In this document: in pieces, positions 3,599 through 48,363 of the stretch
How the letters are laid out: each line of letters starts with the position of its first letter
Numbering within the stretch: position 1 is the stretch's first letter
Assembly (NCBI GenBank): GCA_012728565.1
Contig: JAAYEV010000032.1
Location: 1 to 53,752, forward strand
From: Clostridiales bacterium
Lineage (GTDB): Bacteria; Bacillota; Clostridia; Ch29
Length of the DNA stretch: 53,752 nt
Direction of reading: 5' to 3'
Notes under the pieces: generated by a model
Told to the model about the DNA's origin: nothing
Seen by the model: the letters and a program-made list of their open reading frames with translations, nothing else
Databases searched by the model: none
Made by a program: the position numbers and the translations under genes

Positions 3599-4912
3599 CT
3601 AATCCAGCAGCATTTTCATCTGTTCCAGAGTGCCCTCGAAACTAATTTTTTCGTTTATTTCCTGCTTTAGAAATGCATTTATGTCCTCTATCTTTTCAAT
3701 GGCATAGTCTATTTCGGGATTGCTTCCCGGATTGTACGCTCCTATGCTTATCAAGTCCTCGGCGTTTTTGTAAACGGCCGCAACGTCCTTTACCCTGCGA
3801 GCATACTCCAAATGCTCCTTATCCACAATATTCGGCATCACCCTGCTTATGCTCTGCAGTATATCCACCGCGGGGTAGTGGCTTTTATTTGCCAGGTTTC
3901 GCGAAAGCACTATATGCCCGTCCAGTATTCCCCTCGCGGTGTCAGCTATGGGTTCGTTCAGGTCGTCCCCGTCAACCAGGACCGCATAAAGCCCCGTAAT
4001 GGAGCCCTTTTCCGCTGTCCCGGTTCTTTCGAGCAGCTTTGGCAGCATAGCGAAAACCGATGGCGTGTATCCCCTTGACACGGGGGGTTCCCCAATGGCC
4101 AATCCTACTTCCCTCTGGGCAAGGGCTACCCGGGTCAGGGAATCCATCATCAGTATCACGTCCTTGCCCTGGCTGCGGAAAAACTCGGCTATAGCGGTAA
4201 CAAGCTGGGCGCTCTTCAACCGTACCAGGGCCGGCTGGTCGGAAGTCGCCACCACCACCACCGACCTTTTTAAACCCTCCTCCCCAAGGTCGTTCTCTAT
4301 AAACTCCCTTACCTCTCTGCCCCTTTCCCCTATAAGGCCTATAACATTTATATCGGCAGAAGTGTTGCGGGCAATCATACCCAGCAGCGTACTTTTTCCC
4401 ACGCCGCTGCCTGAAAAAATGCCAACCCTCTGGCCTTTACCGCAGGTAAGCAGGCCGTCAATGGACTTAATTCCCAGCTCCAGCACTTCTGTTATCCTTT
4501 TTCTTGCAAGGGGGTTTGGGGGTGAATTGCTCACCGGGTAAAGGGTGCTGAAACGGAGAGGCCCCCGCCCGTCAATGGGCACCCCCAGGCCGTCCAGTAT
4601 CCTGCCCAGCATTCCTTCCCCAACCGGCACCTTCAGCGTGCCCCCGTTGGCGGCTACACCGCTCCCGGGACCTATGCCTTCCATGTCTCCAAGGGGCATA
4701 AGAAGCACTATGTTATCCCTAAAACCCACCACTTCGGCCTTTATCGGCTTTCCTCCCCGGGCGGGAGTAATCTCACAGATCTCCCCGATATTCACCGGGG
4801 GACCTATTGATTCTATTGTAAGGCCGATTACCTTGCTAACCCTGCCGCTGTATCTAAGCGTGTCCACGTCCTTTAAAGCACTGCTGTATTTTTCAAGCAC
4901 AATGCTACTCAT
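3599..4912 (-). CDS. fliI: Flagellar export ATPase FliI
   Basis: Walker A GSGVGKS, MDSLTR and GEPP motifs. Start moved to MSSIVLEK. Confidence 0.97.
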   Translation of the reverse strand: MSSIVLEKYSSALKDVDTLRYSGRVSKVIGLTIESIGPPVNIGEICEITPARGGKPIKAEVVGFRDNIVLLMPLGDMEGIGPGSGVAANGGTLKVPVGEGMLGRILDGLGVPIDGRGPLRFSTLYPVSNSPPNPLARKRITEVLELGIKSIDGLLTCGKGQRVGIFSGSGVGKSTLLGMIARNTSADINVIGLIGERGREVREFIENDLGEEGLKRSVVVVATSDQPALVRLKSAQLVTAIAEFFRSQGKDVILMMDSLTRVALAQREVGLAIGEPPVSRGYTPSVFAMLPKLLERTGTAEKGSITGLYAVLVDGDDLNEPIADTARGILDGHIVLSRNLANKSHYPAVDILQSISRVMPNIVDKEHLEYARRVKDVAAVYKNAEDLISIGAYNPGSNPEIDYAIEKIEDINAFLKQEINEKISFEGTLEQMKMLLD

Positions 4913-9550: not shown

Positions 9551-9646
9551 CATGTATATCTAAAAATAACCCCCTTTTCTATTTTTTCATACATCATTCC
9601 TCAAATTTCCTAAATCTTTGCAGCGGGCTCTTTAAGGTCCGGCCTT

Positions 9647-9680
9647 AAAAAAACCTGCCGCCCGGAAGCCGGCAACAGGT
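9647..9680 (-). terminator. Intrinsic terminator forming the riboswitch expression platform
   Basis: ACCUGUUGCCGG-CUU-CCGGGCGGCAGGU followed by UUUUUU. Confidence 0.85.
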
Positions 9681-9707
9681 AAATAAACCGTTTTATAAAA
9701 AGCGGCT

Positions 9708-9800
9708 GTATCCGGCAACCCGGCTGCCATAGCAATGACCTTGCCTTAGGCCCGTGGCTTTGCGTCCCCACCTTTTGATGGGTTTGCCTTTATCGAACAC
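9708..9800 (-). ncRNA. Cyclic di-GMP-I (GEMM) riboswitch aptamer upstream of flgB
   Basis: GGCAAACCCAUC-AAAA-GGUGGGGACGCAAAGCCACGGGCCUAAG...UAUGGCAGCCGGGUUGCCG. Has the GGCAAA/GACGCAAAGC core and the CCUAAG/UAUGG 11-nt receptor. The G20 and C92 equivalents are present, indicating c-di-GMP rather than c-AMP-GMP. Confidence 0.95.
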
Positions 9801-9817
9801 TGTCATATTATTAATAT

Positions 9818-9826
9818 ATTCTATCA
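9818..9826 (-). promoter_or_regulatory. Extended -10 (TGnTAGAAT) sigmaA-type promoter for the riboswitch/flagellar operon
   Basis: TGATAGAAT lies just upstream of the aptamer, preceded by a long A/T-tract region. Confidence 0.55.
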
Positions 9827-9953
9827 TATATTTCTATATATTTTTACTTTTTCCTCCTTTTTTCGTAAAAATATTTTTTATTTTTTCTATTTTTTGTTAT
9901 ACCGACCGTCGTCTCGCCGCTTTATTTCGTTATATATAAGCCCGGTAACTGCT

Positions 9954-39964: not shown

Positions 39965-42046
39965 TTATACCACTTTTAAGCCCTCGGTTTCCAGTCTTCT
40001 TTGCAATATATTGACACATTCCTCCCCTTCCATGGACAGCCTTGTGCCCTTGGGCCCTTTACGGGTCACCACAAGACCGTACTTTGCCAAGATGTTAAGC
40101 CGGTTTCTTACCATTTGTTCTGTCATCTTGGTGCCCCCGCCGCAAAGCTGCGCAAGACTTCTCCTGCTTAAGTAAGCCCTGCCTTCTTCCTGTGCTTTTT
40201 TCATAGTTGAAAGGATAAGGAATGTTTCGTCCATGGGCATTTCCTTTTCCAGCAGCTGCAGCAGCTTTTCCTTTTGCATAGTGCTGTCCTTTGAAACAAA
40301 GGGCAGGTCCTTTACCCTCACAGGACCTTCTCCAACAATGTGATAAAGGTACTCGATTACGTTTTCCAGCTCGCGGATGTTTCCCGGCCAGTCGTATTCC
40401 ATGAACTTTTCCATGGCCTGGTCGCTTATTATAAGCTCCTTACCCCCGGGGAACCTTTCCAGCATCTTTTCAATCAAAAGCGGTATATCCTCCTTGCGCT
40501 CCCTAAGGGGCGGTATTCGAATGGGCAGCACTTTAAGCCTGTAAAACAAATCCTCCCTGAACTTGCCCGCACTCACAAGGTCTTCCAAGTTTTTATTGGT
40601 GGCGGCTATAATCCTTACATCTATAGGTATAATCTTTGTGCCGCCTATGCGCAGCACTTCCTTTTCCTGCAAAACCCTAAGCAGCCGGGCCTGGATCTTC
40701 ATTGAGGCATCCCCTATCTCGTCCAGGAATATGGTCCCCTTGTGGGCCTGCTCGAACAGCCCTGCATGCCCGCCCTTCCTCGCACCGGTAAAAGCGCCCT
40801 CCTCGTAGCCGAACAGTTCGCTTTCCAGCAGGTTTTCCGGCAGAGCCGCAAAGTTAACCGCCACAAAGGGCCCGTGCTGTTTATTGGATGCCCTGTGTAT
40901 TGCATGGGCGAACAGCTCCTTTCCTATGCCACTTTCGCCTATGAGAAGAAGGGTTGAATTGCTCTTGGCAAGTTTCCTTGCTATCTCCTTTGTCTCGGTT
41001 ATTTTCTTGCTTTTACCTATTATATTTGAAAAATCGTACTTGGAGGTGTGACCCCTTTTCATCAGGTTGGTCCTTACTATATTCTCCATCTCAATAATTT
41101 CCGAAAGGTCCTTGAAAGTTATTATAACCCCGTTGTATACGTCATCTTTGATAATGGGCATCATGGTGAGCAAAATCTTTTTACCCATTATTTCATGTAT
41201 TTTTCGATAAAGGCCGAAATTCTTCCCCAAAAGGCTCTTTGCCTCGAAGTCCAAAACATCGTCCAGGTTTATGTCTCCATTCTTAGTCTTTCCCCTTGAA
41301 CCAAACAGTTTTTTTGCATTTTCATTGCTGAACATAATACTGCCATTGCTGTCTACGCCCACTATGCCGTCGTTTATTACGTTGAGTATGGTATTTAATT
41401 GCTTCATTATATTATCGTTGGTTTCCAGGGCCTTTACCACTTTTTTGCTGGAATACACGAAGTCCTGCAGGAACCTTACCGACAACAGGTTTGTTCTCTC
41501 GTCCATGATTTTCAACTTCATCATAATCTCGGTTATGGTGGTAAGGTCAATCTTGCTGTAACCCAGGTCTATGACGTTTTCCACGTAATCGGGAACCATA
41601 TGGGTTTCCCCCGTTGTGATTGCATAATTGGCGTGCAGTGAAAACCTCTGCCCCGGGTAATACGGGTACATCCTTATATGGGTTATGCCCAGTCCTTCCA
41701 GGAGGGATATGGAGTTTTCGGCAAGGTACTTGTTAACGTCTACAAACAGTACGTCTTCTCCCTTGGGTATTCTAAGCACATCCTCCAGCTTGGAATGGTT
41801 CAGCGCACGCCTGGCCACCAGCACCTCCGACCTGGGGTCGATATACTTCATGGCCGCTTCCCTAAGGTATTCATGGCTAATCAGTACCAGCTTGTCGTAT
41901 ATTTTTTCATTTATGCCCTCCAGTATGGAATACCCCCTGATTGTCACCTCCGGGCCCAACAGGTTGGTAAGCTGGTTTATCACGTTTTCCTTATGTTTCT
42001 CGGAACGGGTTATGATGGACAGGCCGGATGGAATTTCGGTTGACAT
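39965..42046 (-). CDS. Sigma54-dependent enhancer-binding protein (N-terminal sensory region, PAS-like, AAA+, winged-helix-like C-terminus)
   Basis: GESGIGKE Walker [40 protein letters not shown]. Confidence 0.96.
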
Positions 42047-42110
42047 GGTATTTGCCCTCCTTCCTGAGATATAGCGCCTTTATTTATTGTATTGTATCAA
42101 AAAATTACCG

Positions 42111-42148
42111 GGTTTAAAATGGTTTTATTCAAAAAACCTTTTTGAACC
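42111..42148. promoter_or_regulatory. Candidate activator binding site 1 (UAS)
   Basis: GGTT-N6-GGTT-N10-AACC-N6-AACC; arms are complementary at 14 of 16 positions. Confidence 0.7.
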
Positions 42149-42265
42149 AATTATATCGCCGTTATACTCATTTCAAACAACGCTGTCGTGCCCCGGTGTA
42201 CCACAGCCAATAAACGGGGATAGAGCTTTTGCAGCCACAGTTTCCCGCCGGAGGGCTGTCTATTT

Positions 42266-42303
42266 GGTTTTTTATGGGTCATATCAACAACCCATTATCA
42301 ACC
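42266..42303. promoter_or_regulatory. Candidate activator binding site 2 (UAS)
   Basis: GGTT-N6-GGGT-N10-ACCC-N6-AACC; same 38-bp geometry as site 1. Confidence 0.7.
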
Positions 42304-42384
42304 TATATGCCAAAAGCTACGCATTATAAGCCCTGCCAAGAGGCTGTTATCGCCTATAGACGCCCCCCTGCCTTATAAAAAAAC

Positions 42385-42401
42385 TTGGCATGAATATTGC
42401 T
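42385..42401 (+). promoter_or_regulatory. sigma54 (-24/-12) promoter of the eam-TRAP operon
   Basis: TTGGCATGAATATTGCT = GG-N10-GC; divergent from a GAFTGA activator. Confidence 0.93.
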
Positions 42402-42516
42402 TATTTCATTAGCAGGCTGATCAGCGAAACCATTTTTAGGGGGTGGTATTGGAATTTAATGACATTAAGGAATGGGCATAATCATTCGAATTATTTATCC
42501 AATAGGAGGTCAAGAA

Positions 42517-43779
42517 ATGGATACTGCTAATAAAAGCGCAAGACAGATTTCCCTGGAAAGGGCCGAAGTTTTAAAAAGCCGTATAGACCCCTATCTTGAA
42601 GCTAAAATGCATATCCCTACCGGACTTGAACAGGATGAAGTAATCAAGGCAAGGCAGGCTAAGATAAAAGAAGGTTTAGGGGCTACCGACGCCGAGTGGA
42701 ACGATTGGAAGTGGCAGATAAAAAACAGGATAACAGATTCGGATACCCTTGCAAAATTTATCAATCTAACTCCCAAACAGAAGAAGGATATTGATGCTGT
42801 CACGAAGAAGTTTAGATGGGCAATTTCCCCTTACTATTTATCGCTCATAGACCCGGAGGGAGACCATTACAAGGACCCGATATACCTTCAGTCCATTCCT
42901 ACGGGCCTTGAACTAAAAGAGGGTATCGGCGAGGCCGATCCTATGGCAGAGGAATTTACCAACCCTGCCCCCTGTATTACACGCCGGTATCCCGACAGGC
43001 TTATAATTAACGTAACAAACCAGTGCGGAATGTACTGCAGGCACTGTCAAAGGAGAAGGAATATCGGAGAAATAGATTCACCACAACCTAGGGAAAACCT
43101 GCAGCAGGCTGTCGACTATATTAAAAATACTCCTGAAATAAGGGATGTTTTAATAACCGGCGGCGACCCCTTCACATTATCCGATGAGAATCTTGACTGG
43201 CTGCTGGGGGAACTTGACAAGATACCGCATCTTGAGTACAAGCGTATTGGCAGCCGGATGCCGGTTACCTTGCCCCAGAGGATAACACCCGAACTGTGTG
43301 CCATGCTCAAGAAACATCATCCGCTTTATATCAATACGCATTTCAACAACCCGATGGAAGTATCGGCCGAATCCAAAAAGGCCTGTGAGATGCTTGCCGA
43401 TGCGGGAATACCCCTGGGGAACCAGGCAGTACTTTTGAGGGGAATAAACGACCATCCCTTCGTGATGAAGAAACTTTGCCAGGAACTTTTAAGAATAAGA
43501 GTTAGGCCCTATTATATATTCCACGCTAAGGGTGTGGTGGGAACCCTTCACTTCAGAACCAGCGTTGACATTGGTATTGAAATCATGGAACACCTGAGGG
43601 GCTACACATCGGGCCTGGCAATACCCACATTTATAATAAACGCTCCCCAGGGAAGGGGCAAAACGCCCATGCTTCCAGAGTATTTAATCTCCCACGGCAG
43701 GGACACCATAACCATAAGAACCTGGGAGGGAGAAATCATCACATATCCTAACAAGGATGCCGAAGTGGAATACGAATAG
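42517..43779 (+). CDS. eam: Glutamate 2,3-aminomutase (radical SAM/PLP, KamA family)
   Basis: CGMYCRHC; PLP lysine in APQGRGKTP; Eam-type N-terminus RQISLERAEVLKSRID. Lys (YIFHAK) and Asn (FIINAP) replace the two Asp residues that bind the lysine side chain in lysine 2,3-aminomutase. SD AGGAGGT. Confidence 0.9.
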   Translation: MDTANKSARQISLERAEVLKSRIDPYLEAKMHIPTGLEQDEVIKARQAKIKEGLGATDAEWNDWKWQIKNRITDSDTLAKFINLTPKQKKDIDAVTKKFRWAISPYYLSLIDPEGDHYKDPIYLQSIPTGLELKEGIGEADPMAEEFTNPAPCITRRYPDRLIINVTNQCGMYCRHCQRRRNIGEIDSPQPRENLQQAVDYIKNTPEIRDVLITGGDPFTLSDENLDWLLGELDKIPHLEYKRIGSRMPVTLPQRITPELCAMLKKHHPLYINTHFNNPMEVSAESKKACEMLADAGIPLGNQAVLLRGINDHPFVMKKLCQELLRIRVRPYYIFHAKGVVGTLHFRTSVDIGIEIMEHLRGYTSGLAIPTFIINAPQGRGKTPMLPEYLISHGRDTITIRTWEGEIITYPNKDAEVEYE

Positions 43780-43881
43780 AAAACATTTAAAGCTCAAAGA
43801 TATACTTTAACGATTCTCTTTAACCTAATCAATTTTTGGTGATAAATCATTACCAAAAATATCAAATAAGGGGGTATATCC

Positions 43882-44931
43882 ATGAGAAAAAAACTAGCTT
43901 TATTTATGGTTCTCCTGTTTGTGCTGGGCGCCATGCTGGCGGGCTGCAGCCCTTCGGGAGGTACCGAACAGCCGGGTGAAGAAGCAGAAGAAAAACCGGC
44001 ACCAGCTCAGAAAATGCAAATCAATATCATCACCGGTTCCACCGGCGGTACCTATTTCGCCCTTGGTGGGGCCATGGCCAACACCTGGAATGAATTCCTG
44101 GACAACATACAGGTGACAAGCCAGCCCGGCGGTGCTTCGGTTGAAAGTATTAACCGTGTGCATGCCGGCGAGGTTGAACTTGGAATGGCTATGAACAACA
44201 TAGCCGACGACGCCTGGAACGGCAGGGGGTCCTTCCCGACCGAGCAGCGTAACTTCAGGGCCATAGGCGTTATATACCCGGAAGTTTACCAGGGTGTTGC
44301 ATTAAAGAGCAGCGGCATAAAAACCATTGAGGACCTGAAGGGTAAAAGAGTAGCCGTAGGCCCGGTTGGAAGCGGTACCGTTGTTATGACCGAGACGGTA
44401 TTTGCGGAAGCGGGCATGACCTTTGACGATGTAAAGGCAGCCTATGACGGGTTTGGCGATGCCGCCAGCAAGATGAAGGACGGCCACCTGGATGCAGCCT
44501 TTAACGTACTGGCAGTTCCTGCCGCTGCAATACAGGACATTATGACCGCCCGTGAGATAGAAGTGATCGAAATAGGTGATGAACTGTTCCAAAAAATAAA
44601 AGCCAAGTCTCCCTTCTTCAGCCAGTATGTGATACCGGCCGGGACTTACGGTAACGAGGAAGACAAACTTACAGTCAACTGCGTGGCAGCACTTTACGTC
44701 GCCCCGGATATGCCGGAGGATGCCGTATACGAAATAACCAAGGTATGGTTTGAGCAGACCGCGCATACTGCAGCCGCTCACCAGGCCGCCCAATGGCTGG
44801 CGGATGAAATTGCCGCGGGCAACAAGCAGGTAATGATAGACGGTATTACAACACCGCTGCATAAAGGTGCCTATAAGTACTTTACTGAAATAGGCCTTGA
44901 TATCCCGGACATGATAAAACCCATAGACTAA
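43882..44931 (+). CDS. TAXI-family TRAP transporter substrate-binding lipoprotein
   Basis: Lipobox LAGC, TGSTGGTYF, GASVE, DLKGKRVAVGPVGSGT, PLHKGAYKYF. Confidence 0.95.
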   Translation: MRKKLALFMVLLFVLGAMLAGCSPSGGTEQPGEEAEEKPAPAQKMQINIITGSTGGTYFALGGAMANTWNEFLDNIQVTSQPGGASVESINRVHAGEVELGMAMNNIADDAWNGRGSFPTEQRNFRAIGVIYPEVYQGVALKSSGIKTIEDLKGKRVAVGPVGSGTVVMTETVFAEAGMTFDDVKAAYDGFGDAASKMKDGHLDAAFNVLAVPAAAIQDIMTAREIEVIEIGDELFQKIKAKSPFFSQYVIPAGTYGNEEDKLTVNCVAALYVAPDMPEDAVYEITKVWFEQTAHTAAAHQAAQWLADEIAAGNKQVMIDGITTPLHKGAYKYFTEIGLDIPDMIKPID

Positions 44932-44982
44932 TCAACAGAGAGGGGGAAGGCCGGGTCGGCTTTGCAGCCCCGGCCTTCATTA

Positions 44983-45516
44983 ATGAAAAAAACTTTTATC
45001 TTACTTTTATTTTTCGGTATAGTTTTTTCCCTTTTGCTGCTACCCATCCTTGTACTTGAAGTAAGGGTTGACGGCTCTGAAGAGCTTGTCTTTCAACAGC
45101 CAGCAAAAGCAGGAAGTTTATTCGAAGTCCACTGGATACATTCGGTTACACTGCAGCCGGTTATAGAAGTTTACCTTTTGGAAGCTCCCGGCAGAATCCC
45201 GATAGTAAAGATGACCTTTGACGAATTTGGGCCAAATCTGCCGGCACACCCCGAGTTTAACCAGTACTGGGTTATTGAAGACGGAAAATATAACGTACTG
45301 GGCTACGATTTAGTATTTGAAAGAGTTCCGGTAACCATAGGTGCCGTTATAGCAGACCATACCCTTGTTTATAACGGGCGCTCCACTCCTTTGGAGGATG
45401 TGCACCGCCCCGGCGGGTATGTGCATATAGGCCTTACAGAAAAAAAACTTTGCCAATTCTTTATTGAGGAGGTAGAAATATGGCAGAAAGGCAGAAGGAA
45501 GACAGCATTTTATTAG
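44983..45516 (+). CDS. DUF1850-like small protein associated with TAXI-TRAP systems
   Basis: N-terminal hydrophobic segment, F.VHWIHSV...V.E.Y and FGPNLP motifs; lies between the binding protein and the permease. Start uncertain. Confidence 0.8.
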   Translation: MKKTFILLLFFGIVFSLLLLPILVLEVRVDGSEELVFQQPAKAGSLFEVHWIHSVTLQPVIEVYLLEAPGRIPIVKMTFDEFGPNLPAHPEFNQYWVIEDGKYNVLGYDLVFERVPVTIGAVIADHTLVYNGRSTPLEDVHRPGGYVHIGLTEKKLCQFFIEEVEIWQKGRRKTAFY

Positions 45517-47465
45517 ACGAAATTAAACTGGACGAGGAAAAGTCTGATGAGATACTTGCCAAGTACGACCGGGAATTCGCCTACCGCAGGCTTGAAGGTC
45601 CGATAGCCAAGTTCGTATTTTTGCTTGCGGTTGCCTGGTCGCTGGCCCATCTGTATACGGCAGCCTTCGGGGTTTTCCCCTCCACGATACAAAGAGCTCC
45701 CCACGTTGGTATTGCCCTGGTACTAATATTTATTATGTATCCGGCCAAAAGAGGCAGTAAAAGCAACAAAGTCGCATGGTATGATTATATTCTGGCCTTC
45801 CTTGGTTTTGTCGTTTCGGCCTACCACGTAATATATTATAAGGAACTGGTTTGGCGAGCGGGAGTATATAATACCACCGATATGATAATCAGTGTTATAG
45901 CAGTTTTATTGATCATTGAAGCTACCAGAAGACTGGCGGGGCCGGTTATGATTTCCTTGGCAACGTTCTTTCTGCTGTATGCATACTTTGGTAAATATTT
46001 TCCGTCCTTCATGGCCCATCCGGGTCTTACAATAAAAAGGATAGCTGTTTTCCAGTGGCTGGGTACCGAAGGCATCCTGGGAACGCCCATCCAGGTATCC
46101 TCAACTTTTATATTCTTATTTATGCTTTTTGCTTCCTTTTTAAAGAAAAGCGGTGTCGGGGATTGGATGACGGAAATAGCGGTGGGTTTAACCGGCGGGG
46201 CCATAGGCGGTCCGGCCAAGGCGGCGGTTATTGCCAGCGCAGCCCAGGGTACCGTGTCCGGCAGCTCGGTTGCCAATACGGTGGGTACCGGGTCGGTAAC
46301 CATTCCCCTTATGAAAAGTATCGGCTATCGTCCTGCCTTTGCCGGTGCCGTTGAGGCGGCCGCATCCACCGGCGGACAGCTTATGCCTCCCATAATGGGT
46401 GCTGCGGCTTTTATAATGTCGGAGTTTTTAAACATCCCGTACGGGACCATTGCACTGGCTGCAGCCATACCGGCCGTTCTATATTTTACAGGGATATTCA
46501 TTACCGTGCATCTTGAAGCCAAAAAGGCCGGGCTTTTGGGATTACCCAAGGATAAGCTGCCCGACTGGAAACGGCTGCTTAAGAGAAAATGGTTCCTTGC
46601 GGCTCCCATATTTGGTATCATTTATCTATTGGTAAGTGGATACACTCCTATGCTGGCCGCTTTTTATGCAATAATACTGTGTATAGGCGCATCCATGATT
46701 CTAAAAGAAACCCGTATGTCCTTAAACGATATCATTTCCACACTGGAGGAAGGCGCCAAGTCCGCTCTGCCGGTTGTTGCAGCCTGCGCAACGGCGGGAA
46801 TCATCGTAGGTATTGTAACTCTCACAGGACTTGGTATGAAAATGTCAGGGGGCCTGGTAAAGCTGGCCGGTGGTAATATATACCTCACCATGTTCTTTAC
46901 AATGATAGGTTCCCTTATACTGGGTATGGGTGTCCCAACCACGGCAAACTATATAATCCAGGCAACGGTTTCCGCTCCTGCTTTAATGACGCTGGGTGTG
47001 CCTCCGCTGGCTGCCCATTTGTTCGTGTTCTATTTCGGAATAGTTGCGGATATTACCCCGCCTGTTGCCCTGGCAGCCTTTGCCGGTTCGGGTATAGCCC
47101 AGTCGGATCCGATGAAGACGGGCGTTGAGGCCTTTAAGCTTGGATTTGCAGCATACCTGGTACCGTACATTTTTGCGCTGAACCCAATACTGGTGCTTAT
47201 AAACCTTGAGGGTCTATCCACCCCGTTGTTCATCTTACGTGTAATCTTTGCATTGGCTACGGCACTGGTGGGTATGCTTTGTATCGGCGCTTCGACAACT
47301 GCCTACTTTGTAACCAACGACAAATGGTATGAACGGATCCTGCTTTTCGTTGCGGGTGTTTCCTTGATACACCCCGGGATTCAAACCGATATATTCGGTG
47401 CGGTGGTCCTGGCGGGAACATGGTTCGTACAGAAATCACGGGTAAAAAGAAAGGCTACAGCGTAA
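45480..47465 (+). CDS. TRAP transporter fused 4TM/12TM permease (TAXI type)
   Basis: GGPAKAAV, SGSSVAN, ASTGGQLMPPIMGAAAF, LGMGVPTTANY, DITPPVALAAF. Confidence 0.96.
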   Translation: MAERQKEDSILLDEIKLDEEKSDEILAKYDREFAYRRLEGPIAKFVFLLAVAWSLAHLYTAAFGVFPSTIQRAPHVGIALVLIFIMYPAKRGSKSNKVAWYDYILAFLGFVVSAYHVIYYKELVWRAGVYNTTDMIISVIAVLLIIEATRRLAGPVMISLATFFLLYAYFGKYFPSFMAHPGLTIKRIAVFQWLGTEGILGTPIQVSSTFIFLFMLFASFLKKSGVGDWMTEIAVGLTGGAIGGPAKAAVIASAAQGTVSGSSVANTVGTGSVTIPLMKSIGYRPAFAGAVEAAASTGGQLMPPIMGAAAFIMSEFLNIPYGTIALAAAIPAVLYFTGIFITVHLEAKKAGLLGLPKDKLPDWKRLLKRKWFLAAPIFGIIYLLVSGYTPMLAAFYAIILCIGASMILKETRMSLNDIISTLEEGAKSALPVVAACATAGIIVGIVTLTGLGMKMSGGLVKLAGGNIYLTMFFTMIGSLILGMGVPTTANYIIQATVSAPALMTLGVPPLAAHLFVFYFGIVADITPPVALAAFAGSGIAQSDPMKTGVEAFKLGFAAYLVPYIFALNPILVLINLEGLSTPLFILRVIFALATALVGMLCIGASTTAYFVTNDKWYERILLFVAGVSLIHPGIQTDIFGAVVLAGTWFVQKSRVKRKATA

Positions 47466-47503
47466 AAGGAAGCAACGGTCAATCCTGTTCATTAAACCCC
47501 CTG

Positions 47504-47548
47504 AAGGGGCCTGCGGCAAAGTGCTGCCGCAGGCCCCTTTCGGTTGTG
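47504..47548 (+). terminator. Terminator of the eam-TRAP operon
   Basis: Perfect 15-bp stem AAGGGGCCTGCGGCA/TGCCGCAGGCCCCTT with a short U-rich tail. Confidence 0.7.
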
Positions 47549-47601
47549 GTTGTTGTACATGATACTCCTTGGATATGAACCGGGCGGCTGTGCTTGACAA
47601 C

Positions 47602-47644: not shown

Positions 47645-47821
47645 TTATTCTGCCTTGATTATTTCCTTCCCCTTATAGTACCCACAGGACTTGCATATCC
47701 TATGGGGCATCATAAGTTCGTGGCACTGCGGGCATTCCGCAAGGCCGGGCTTTCTCAGTTTCCAATGGGCCAGCCTGTTGTTTCTCCTGGATTTGGAGAC
47801 TCTTCTTTTTGGTACCGCCAT
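47645..47821 (-). CDS. rpmF: 50S ribosomal protein L32 (zinc-ribbon type)
   Basis: Not in the ORF track. Manual translation [58 protein letters not shown] (58 aa); SD GGAGGTG. Confidence 0.98.
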
Positions 47822-47841
47822 ATTAACACCTCCCTGCGCTG

Positions 47842-48333
47842 CTACTGTTCCAACAATCTTTTAAGCTGCTGCATCCTCGGGTCAATCTCATTGATGCTGC
47901 AGCCGCATTCTTCTACGTTCCTGTCGGCACCGCATATTGGACATAGGCCTTTGCATTCCTCGCTGCACAATACCTTCACCGGGAGCTCAAGCAGTATGCT
48001 TTCCATAACCGGTTCCCTAAGGTCAATGCTGTCTCCCTTTACCGGCAGCACTTCTTCTCCGGGTCCGGCCTCGCTGTACTGCTGGCTGAAACCGGTGCGG
48101 AGGGGGTGCCTTATGGTCCTAAGGCACCTGGAGCACTGAAGTACAACCTCCGTCCGGACTTCGCCCGTCACATACAGTAAATCCCCGTCCCGCTCTATAC
48201 TGCCGTTAACGGCCACCGGGCTTTCGAAGTCCAACCTTTCCCCCCTGTAGTCAAGTCCCTCCATGTCTTCTTTTAAGCTAAACGTCATACGGCCGTCGTC
48301 CCCGCGTCTAAGCCTGTTAACATGTATTATCAT
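47842..48333 (-). CDS. yceD: YceD/DUF177 family protein
   Basis: [27 protein letters not shown]; upstream of rpmF. Confidence 0.93.
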
Positions 48334-48363
48334 CGCCAGCACACCCCGTAGTCAACAAATTTT

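Follow-up and report, generated by a model that had tools for sequence, protein, structure and literature searches.

The stretch of DNA analyzed here (the window) comprises the 53,752 nucleotides of contig JAAYEV010000032.1 from a Clostridiales bacterium, and the element under study is a module at positions 39965-47600 that is a candidate for the uptake and isomerization of beta-glutamate. In this module, the divergently oriented gene of a sigma-54 activator is separated by an intergenic region of 470 bp from four plus-strand genes, which code for a glutamate 2,3-aminomutase (eam), a TAXI-family TRAP solute-binding lipoprotein, a DUF1850 protein, and a fused TRAP permease (Table 1). Promoter, eam, TAXI lipoprotein, DUF1850 gene, fused permease, terminator, and divergent activator with a GAFTGA motif had all been named in the original prediction, which was made from the sequence alone, and all of them were recovered at their positions. 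Binding protein and fused DctQM-type permease are adjacent and score far above their cut-offs, as is required of a TAXI-type TRAP transporter; DUF1850 is the usual small gene between the two, and its homologues have the same position in relatives. The likely start codon of eam is preceded by AGGAGG. The terminator hairpin has a folding energy of -44.3 kcal/mol (z = -4.4), equal stability being reached in 0 of 200 shuffles, and a terminator-like site of the opposite strand lies convergently at 47634-47605. With a -24 GG/-12 GC promoter, an AAA+ activator carrying GAFTGA, and a genomic rpoN gene scoring 479 bits versus a cut-off of 277, the parts of a sigma-54-dependent operon are complete.

Table 1: Features of the module and its surroundings (window positions), and riboswitch leaders of lone eam genes at other loci (locus positions).
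Feature	Position	Strand	Evidence and remarks
Activator, sigma-54 enhancer-binding, 693 amino acids	39965-42046	-	Sigma54_activat 230 bits (Pfam); GAFTGA and Walker A read in translation
Candidate upstream activator site, inverted repeat GGTTTAAAATGGTTTT / AAAACCTTTTTGAACC	42111-42148		~240-275 bp upstream of the -24 element; putative function
-24/-12 sigma-54 promoter TTGGCATGAATATTGCT	42385-42401	+	Pattern match; conserved in relatives
Perfect palindrome GCTGATCAGC	42416-42425		15 nucleotides downstream of the -12 element; single copy in window
eam, glutamate 2,3-aminomutase, 420 amino acids from ATG	42517-43779	+	TIGR04368; open reading frame opens at 42472
TAXI-family TRAP solute-binding lipoprotein, Met-type	43882-44931	+	TIGR02122, 280.9 bits versus cut-off 84.35; signal peptide, lipobox LAGC
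DUF1850 protein	44962-45516	+	PF08905, 54.2 bits versus 27; TTG start uncertain; overlaps permease start
Fused TRAP permease, DctQ-DctM type, 661 amino acids	45480-47465	+	TIGR02123, 739.8 bits versus 320.65; PF06808
Intrinsic terminator hairpin	47503-47540	+	16-bp G+C-rich stem, U-rich tail
rpmF, L32-like (name presumed)	47645-47821	-	True downstream neighbor, then yceD, ackA
yceD	47842-48342	-	PF02620
c-di-AMP riboswitch leaders of lone eam	L061:9658-9789, L039:9746-9879, L080:9726-9853		Rfam
Tandem c-di-AMP and Na+-I riboswitches before lone eam	L069:9447-9507 and 9611-9848		Rfam

The aminomutase passes the curated equivalog cut-off of TIGR04368 (679.9 bits versus 650) and stays below those of the sister models for AblA acting on lysine (497.6 versus 525.4), for arginine 2,3-aminomutase (374.2 versus 600), and for EpmB (214.5 versus 369.3); the comparison of hidden Markov models suggested with the original prediction has come out in favor of Eam. 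The radical-SAM motif CxxxCxxC is present and PF04055 is matched. In lysine 2,3-aminomutase, two aspartate residues hold the epsilon-amino group of lysine, and lysine and asparagine replace them in Eam. This pair, which had been claimed to separate the enzyme from lysine 2,3-aminomutase, is found in the alignment to 2A5H, where Asp293 corresponds to Lys and Asp330 to Asn (residues counted by hand on the alignment). Across 14 homologues, neither these two residues (K338 and N375) nor the cysteines of the cluster (C170, C174, and C177) vary. The predicted identity as a glutamate 2,3-aminomutase is a sound call, made with a small margin over the cut-off and for a member of a distinct clade. The Eam of Clostridioides difficile was reportedly described by Ruzicka and Frey in 2007. 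The window enzyme belongs to the same radical-SAM/pyridoxal phosphate family, shares the Lys/Asn pair, and is 62% identical to a C. difficile locus; the C. difficile eam (L031), however, is a lone gene without transporter or activator, whereas in the window, eam opens a transporter operon. A second KamA-family gene of the same genome (G000:C51:33-1112; L002, L172) gives 507.6 bits on the Eam model, which is below the cut-off, and presumably encodes a lysine 2,3-aminomutase; a further radical-SAM fragment is located at 3752-3871 on the short contig C51.

The recurrence of the gene arrangement was followed in the best 80 of 595 eam-like loci on contigs of one genome per species, and from the transporter side in a class sample and a phylum sample of 400 genomes each. 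In 15 of the best 80 loci, eam is followed immediately by TAXI and permease genes. These comprise all 12 loci whose Eam is at least 76% identical to that of the window, together with 3 of 68 loci that are more distant. The 15 linked operons share no further conserved enzyme, and the earlier observation that the window operon contains no further enzyme is right for it and for its relatives. The remaining 65 eam genes stand alone in unrelated settings, the commonest of which is dprA-topA (8 loci). In the Eam tree, the linked genes fall into three separate clades, with well-supported branches forcing at least three changes; the window Eam is found in a clade of 13 rows with a support of 100 and a long stem (branch 0.33). 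In the class sample, eam was found upstream of each of the 11 best TAXI loci, that of the window among them, which adds 10 other genomes, and the phylum sample gave five more adjacencies (G545, G520, G419, G466, and G580). Because of the three clades and of the findings in both samples, the linkage is recurrent and has probably been assembled more than once; the neighborhood survey proposed earlier traces it to several lineages, and the refuting outcome named with the original prediction, absence of the linkage from other genomes, did not occur. At locus L165 (G419:C1:876000-893000), two eam copies lie 4.6 kb apart, the second being followed by a Met-type TAXI-TRAP of the lineage of L033 and L047, and identical -24/-12-like motifs are present on the opposite strand just before each copy.

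A pattern scan of the window for the promoter yielded a single match, TGGCATGAATATTGCT at 42386-42401, with one mismatch to TGGCAC-N5-TTGCW. Since about 2.06 matches per window are expected by chance (at least one match in 88 of 100 shuffles), the motif counts only via its position, 115 nucleotides before eam and beside the divergent activator, and via its conservation. Of the 14 other TAXI-linked loci, 7 carry it before eam (L004, L005, L008, L009, L010, L011, and L014), and it is invariant in an alignment of four loci. A motif related to the candidate upstream activator site, GGTnTnAAATGGTT...AAAACC, was recognized by pattern in L004 and L008 and by eye in L005. The palindrome downstream of the -12 element has an unchanged relative position in L004 and L005 and occurs there in L008 as well, with a single change, but a pattern search did not reveal it in the Tissierellia-type loci L009-L011 and L014. 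It could be an operator, possibly that of a second regulator, or be located at the transcript start.

The activator is composed of an N-terminal alpha/beta domain (residues ~8-178), a PAS domain (~225-313), an AAA+ domain with GAFTGA, and a C-terminal helix-turn-helix (HTH) domain. Neither Pfam nor NCBIfam matched a receiver domain, and the protein is therefore probably a one-component sensor. Its structure model has a mean predicted local distance difference test value of 63, the N-terminal blocks mostly reaching 60-88. For the N-terminal domain, Pfam gave no match even at E values up to 1, the fold search returned PAS matches only, and a weak PrpR_N lead at 0.75 (Atlas) does not assign a family identity. 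A collection of 5.8 billion proteins contains no more than 28 clusters related to the sensor region (residues 1-330), each with an identity of at least 61%. To judge from sequence comparison, the activator looks like a regulator dedicated to the eam-TAXI module. It is found with the operon, divergently oriented, in L004, L005, and L008 and, on the same strand, in L009 and L014; control is different in other lineages, with an RpiR-type gene lying upstream of the operon in L033 and L047. A one-component PAS-AAA+-HTH activator beside a -24/-12 promoter is common to Clostridiales sigma-54 operons such as PrdR-prd, OrdR-ord, and LeuR-had. PrdR (NF041552) is also the best NCBIfam match of the window activator, but assignment as PrdR was rejected with 388.5 bits versus a cut-off of 795 and a match spanning only residues 162-617; unlike the activators of those operons, the window protein has the further N-terminal domain.

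The closest solved structures to the window TAXI protein are TAXI proteins, including the L-glutamate binders TtGluBP of Thermus thermophilus (1US4) and VcGluP of the VcGluP/VcGluQM system of Vibrio cholerae (8S4J). According to the binding study of VcGluP (PMC11574862), the alpha-amino group of L-glutamate is held by Tyr45, Gln93, and Glu125, and only the exchanges Y45A (213-fold) and Q93A (990-fold) are reported to cripple binding. In an alignment to 8S4J, 1US4, and 9OZ4 (with 28 added to the chain numbers for mapping of the site), the window protein keeps Tyr58, Ser86, and Glu134 as the equivalents of Tyr45, Ser75, and Glu125 and carries Met104 at the Gln93 site and Asn208 at the Tyr200 site. 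It thus shares the TAXI fold family (E values of about 1e-33 to 1e-40) and the fused permease with these systems and differs from them by the two residues, by low identity, by being a lipoprotein, and by the enzyme in its operon. Placement in the glutamate-specific type of VcGluP and TtGluBP was rejected, Tyr58 being kept but Gln93 being changed to Met104. On the alignment, this change from Gln to Met concerns the very residue that is predicted to read where the amino group sits.

Met at the Gln93 site was found in every eam-adjacent TAXI protein examined, down to 33% identity (33-48% for the distant ones). It also occurs in a second, distant TAXI lineage (L033, L047, G419, G466, and G580), which is placed outside the main Met clade on a long branch, its placement being unsure. 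Conversely, none of the 26 Gln-type loci that occur among two sets of 30 best loci has an adjacent eam, and L012 and L013 each carry a second TAXI copy of the Gln type. The window's own genome, in which five TAXI paralogues were seen within 2.2 Mb, contains a Gln-type TAXI-DUF1850-permease cluster beside an aspartate aminotransferase gene (G000:C44:261-5147; L168). This cluster would be the likelier L-glutamate/aspartate importer, and a candidate importer of the glutamate type therefore already exists in the genome.

Linked and lone eam genes also differ in their control. With Rfam, a cyclic di-AMP (c-di-AMP) riboswitch was found in the eam leader of four of seven lone loci, in one of them in tandem with a Na+-I riboswitch; the window and six linked loci showed none upstream of eam. 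An nhmmer profile derived from the Rfam hits detected riboswitch leaders in at least 16 of 64 lone loci versus 0 of 15 TAXI-linked loci, the former number being a floor, as the profile is sequence-only and less sensitive than a covariance model. In the window, the eam leader has no significant fold (z = -0.5); the possibility that its eam is a riboswitch-controlled osmoprotectant gene was discarded on the Rfam, folding, and nhmmer results. c-di-AMP and Na+ riboswitch classes are described as marks of osmotic-stress genes (PMC9337991), and sigma-54 activators of Clostridiales are reported to control mostly amino-acid catabolism (PMC6615313). Since riboswitch leaders were found on lone eam genes only, and since sigma-54 activators such as that of the window operon mostly drive amino-acid catabolism in Clostridiales, Eam appears to have two roles, that is, as a riboswitch-led lone gene making an osmolyte and as a transporter-linked gene under control of a substrate type. 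The riboswitch-controlled eam and ablA osmoprotectant genes (Na+-I, c-di-AMP; PMC9337991) are of the same family and are associated with the same metabolite, beta-glutamate; such eam genes are lone, whereas that of the window lacks a riboswitch and is combined with a sigma-54 promoter and an importer. Directly upstream of the lone eam genes in L064, L067, L073, L075, and L080, a GntR-family regulator with a TrkA_C (RCK_C) domain is encoded. This architecture recalls the c-di-AMP-binding osmolyte regulator BusR.

The TAXI clade of the window is found in a second, catabolic gene context. The Met-type clade (46 rows, support 100) comprises 26 eam-linked proteins, 14 stand-alone ones, and 6 that lie beside a set of class-III aminotransferase, beta-keto acid cleavage enzyme (BKACE), and 3-oxoacid CoA-transferase A/B. 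The six loci are L114 (G211:C11), L115 (G032:C3), L147 (G484:C43), L148 (G517:C9), L149 (G432:C65), and L153 (G554:C59). In G211 and G032, members of the window's own family, Met-type TAXI, DUF1850, and permease genes are located beside a sigma-54 activator, the class-III aminotransferase, and BKACE, in G211 together with the 3-oxoacid CoA-transferase A/B; G484, G517, G432, and G554 show the same set in other gene orders, with a thiolase and a glutamate dehydrogenase added in G484. -24/-12 motifs occur in two clusters, before the aminotransferase gene in G032 and before those of BKACE and thiolase in G484. Because beta-lysine 5,6-aminomutase is absent from four of the six genomes, the set would not be part of lysine fermentation there; the lysine-fermenting-type genomes G211 and G032 possess separate Kce loci, and in G484 and G517 there is no other BKACE and no KamA-like gene at all. 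A TRAP importer is, furthermore, without a place in lysine fermentation. Variant lysine fermentation (Kce, Kat, AtoAD, glutamate dehydrogenase, and thiolase), as described in PMC3149608, draws on the same families, but the clusters differ from it by the TRAP importer, by an aminotransferase that matches BioA/omega-type models with no HemL model among the 25 best (Kat being described as HemL-like), and by a BKACE below the Kce cut-off (311-334 versus 382 bits).

Judged by its enzyme families, the set reads as a pathway in which a beta-amino acid would be transaminated to a beta-keto acid, which BKACE would cleave with acetyl-CoA to acetoacetate and an acyl-CoA, CoA-transferase and thiolase finishing the breakdown and glutamate dehydrogenase recycling the amino acceptor. 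Starting from beta-glutamate, this pathway would pass through 3-oxoglutarate, on which part of the BKACE family is reported to be active (PMC4922564), and we infer that beta-glutamate is the one compound usable by both partner sets. An Eam over the cut-off was found in none of the five set-bearing genomes tested, and the window's genome has no BKACE; for this reason, Eam and the aminotransferase/BKACE set look like alternatives for one imported beta-amino acid. In the Eam-less genomes, the set may represent an undescribed breakdown route for a beta-amino acid, perhaps beta-glutamate. The broader rule that every genome with a Met-type TAXI protein has either Eam or BKACE was dropped, as in G598 and G750 the BKACE gene lies beside beta-lysine aminomutase and probably encodes the Kce of lysine fermentation.

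The genome of the window's organism comprises 2.2 Mb on 247 contigs and is 98% complete; it contains a glutamate dehydrogenase, which could use L-glutamate as formed by Eam, and methylaspartate mutase was not found in it. Runs from 13 studies, most of them on anaerobic digesters, contain the stretch. Contigs from RNA libraries in four runs of four anaerobic-digester studies cover eam through permease, single ones crossing the TAXI-DUF1850-permease junctions (e.g., 43848-46118); none of the contigs listed spans the junction of eam and TAXI with 31 letters on each side. In run X15, the bins of the activator gene and the intergenic region are uncovered, and the contig starts at 42424 (X20), 42463 (X15), and 42492 (X18) do not coincide. 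This coverage documents presence in RNA libraries only.

Starting from the gene identities, the operon anatomy, the conserved linkage, and the promoter motif, all of which were observed, we arrive at a substrate-inducible module for the uptake and isomerization of beta-glutamate (3-aminoglutarate), a reading to which we give about an even chance of being correct. The TAXI lipoprotein would capture external beta-glutamate and the fused TRAP permease, together with DUF1850, would import it. Subsequently, the radical-SAM enzyme Eam would move the amino group from C3 to C2, and the resulting L-glutamate would enter central metabolism, for example, via the glutamate dehydrogenase of the genome. Transcription would proceed from one sigma-54 promoter and would require the divergently encoded activator, the N-terminal and PAS sensor region of which presumably binds substrate or product. 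Ligand, direction of the reaction, inducer, and a cross-feeding on the osmolyte of neighboring organisms are the parts that we infer. The original prediction had placed import of beta-glutamate and its conversion to glutamate before the synthesis of an osmolyte; this preference is strengthened because of the Met signature, the catabolic clusters of Eam-less genomes, and the riboswitch/sigma-54 split, with ligand and direction staying at the level of a proposal. A wider reading, taken as one joint claim, is more tentative and, in our estimation, has clearly less than an even chance. According to it, beta-glutamate would be traded in anaerobic communities, Met-type TAXI-TRAP would be a dedicated importer family of Bacillota, and two mutually exclusive routes would follow import, namely isomerization by a sigma-54-controlled Eam clade and an undescribed transaminase route; the change from Gln to Met would be a switch from alpha to beta specificity, reached twice independently. 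In the second route, transaminase would yield 3-oxoglutarate, BKACE and acetyl-CoA would give acetoacetate and malonyl-CoA, and CoA-transferase and thiolase would finish the breakdown.

Several points weigh against the proposed import and isomerization of beta-glutamate. The -24/-12 motif was not found in the remaining 7 of the 14 other linked loci, which implies that control differs between lineages, and the family of the ligand domain of the activator was assigned by neither Pfam, Atlas, nor the fold search. The TAXI proteins of the two gene contexts are only ~48% identical, the enzyme families of the second context are those of the lower half of variant lysine fermentation as described in PMC3149608, and two of the genomes concerned, G211 and G032, are of the lysine-fermenting type. 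Among the 46 Met-type rows, 14 belong to stand-alone transporter operons, and 11 of these 14 genomes have an unlinked Eam; a stand-alone TAXI protein together with an unlinked Eam accords with catabolism and equally with the recapture of an osmolyte made by the cell itself. Moreover, Eam is common in the phylum sample (133 of 401 genomes); among its genomes with a Met-type TAXI protein, it is found in 13 of 19 (including a cut-off fragment in G545), a modest enrichment among related genomes that carries no weight as a test. The RNA-library contigs are silent on level, strand, single transcript, and induction, and DNA may be present in the libraries. All lines of support, the Met signature included, are correlations, and the meaning of Met for beta-glutamate is derived from such a correlation.

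In a different scenario, the operon would serve osmoadaptation, either with Eam making beta-glutamate as a compatible solute from glutamate imported by TAXI-TRAP or with TAXI-TRAP recapturing leaked beta-glutamate. The recapture version resembles the ectoine TRAP system TeaABC. Support comes from the literature, in which Eam is read as an osmoprotectant enzyme (PMC9337991, PMC7835215) and glutamate-specific TAXI systems are reported to serve osmoadaptation in Vibrio (PMC11574862), as well as from the Eam genes located elsewhere in 11 of the 14 genomes with stand-alone Met-type TAXI. This scenario is nevertheless regarded as unlikely, since the riboswitch leaders mark lone eam genes and none of the 15 linked ones, control of the window operon lies with a sigma-54 activator whose sensor region is of the ligand type, the most important residue of the L-glutamate binders is replaced in the binding site, the same TAXI clade serves a catabolic set in Eam-less genomes, and a Gln-type TAXI protein is encoded elsewhere in the same genome. 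The departure of the binding site from the L-glutamate type also speaks against glutamate fermentation via beta-glutamate, in which L-glutamate would be imported, converted to beta-glutamate by Eam, and degraded by enzymes encoded elsewhere, for instance, through a CoA ester and elimination of ammonia to glutaconyl-CoA. A preprint (10.1101/2025.11.21.689712) assigns bacterial Eam to glutamate fermentation, sigma-54 control fits catabolism, and with methylaspartate mutase absent, another glutamate route would be needed; yet a downstream enzyme is conserved beside the operon in none of the 15 linked loci, the genome is without BKACE and has only weak, partial matches resembling 2-hydroxyglutaryl-CoA dehydratase, and its glutamate dehydrogenase offers a direct route from glutamate. 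We consider this the least probable of the explanations weighed here.

It is hardly more probable that the linked Eam clade and the Met-type TAXI proteins handle a different substrate pair, such as a related amino dicarboxylate (aspartate or beta-aspartate-like compounds, 2- or 3-aminoadipate, or glutamine derivatives). The narrow passing of the Eam cut-off, the long stem of the 13-row clade, and the linked BKACEs, which are second best on the model of 3-oxoadipate:acetyl-CoA acetyltransferase (237-272 bits, below 350), would accord with this. They are opposed by the Lys/Asn pair and the cluster motif, which are invariant between the linked clade and typical Eams, by the identity to the C. difficile locus, which extends over the full length, and by the fact that two other, ordinary Eam clades gained TAXI partners with the same Met.

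Concerning its surroundings, the module is flanked by rpmF-yceD-ackA on one side and fapR-plsX on the other, all on the opposite strand. Its G+C content of 0.45-0.48, which is lower than that of the surroundings (0.50-0.55), and the recurrence of the fapR/plsX and ackA flanks in L005 suggest that the module (39965-47600) was inserted as a unit. The name rpmF is taken from a sequence motif. An open reading frame of 145 amino acids at 47702-48139 on the plus strand, which matched no family and overlaps the oppositely oriented yceD, probably does not represent a gene. Elsewhere in the window, at 9711-9798 on the minus strand, a c-di-GMP-I riboswitch was detected (91 bits versus a gathering score of 35).

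Summarizing, all parts of the module, Eam, TAXI-TRAP transporter, and sigma-54 activator, are of known families, and their combination works like the sigma-54 amino-acid utilization operons. In the main text of PMC6615313, supplementary tables aside, the words "aminomutase" and "TRAP" have 0 occurrences, and no eam or TRAP regulon is given there. A description of eam-TRAP linkage or of beta-glutamate uptake or catabolism was not found in the full texts searched, with subscription papers and supplements being outside the scope. Methanogens use beta-glutamate as a major osmolyte (PMC1224877). In gut metabolomes it is a conspicuous metabolite, yet a recent study reports just a single KEGG reaction for it (10.1101/2024.12.13.628341). 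If the proposed reading is true, the module would differ from the known sigma-54 operons by a new substrate and a new role of Eam, and its transporter would be the first importer for beta-glutamate. Eam would have a catabolic role distinct from the riboswitch-controlled osmolyte role, and Met versus Gln would be a simple residue marker for sorting TAXI binding proteins. Together with the aminotransferase-BKACE clusters, an outline of beta-glutamate recycling in anaerobic digesters would emerge.

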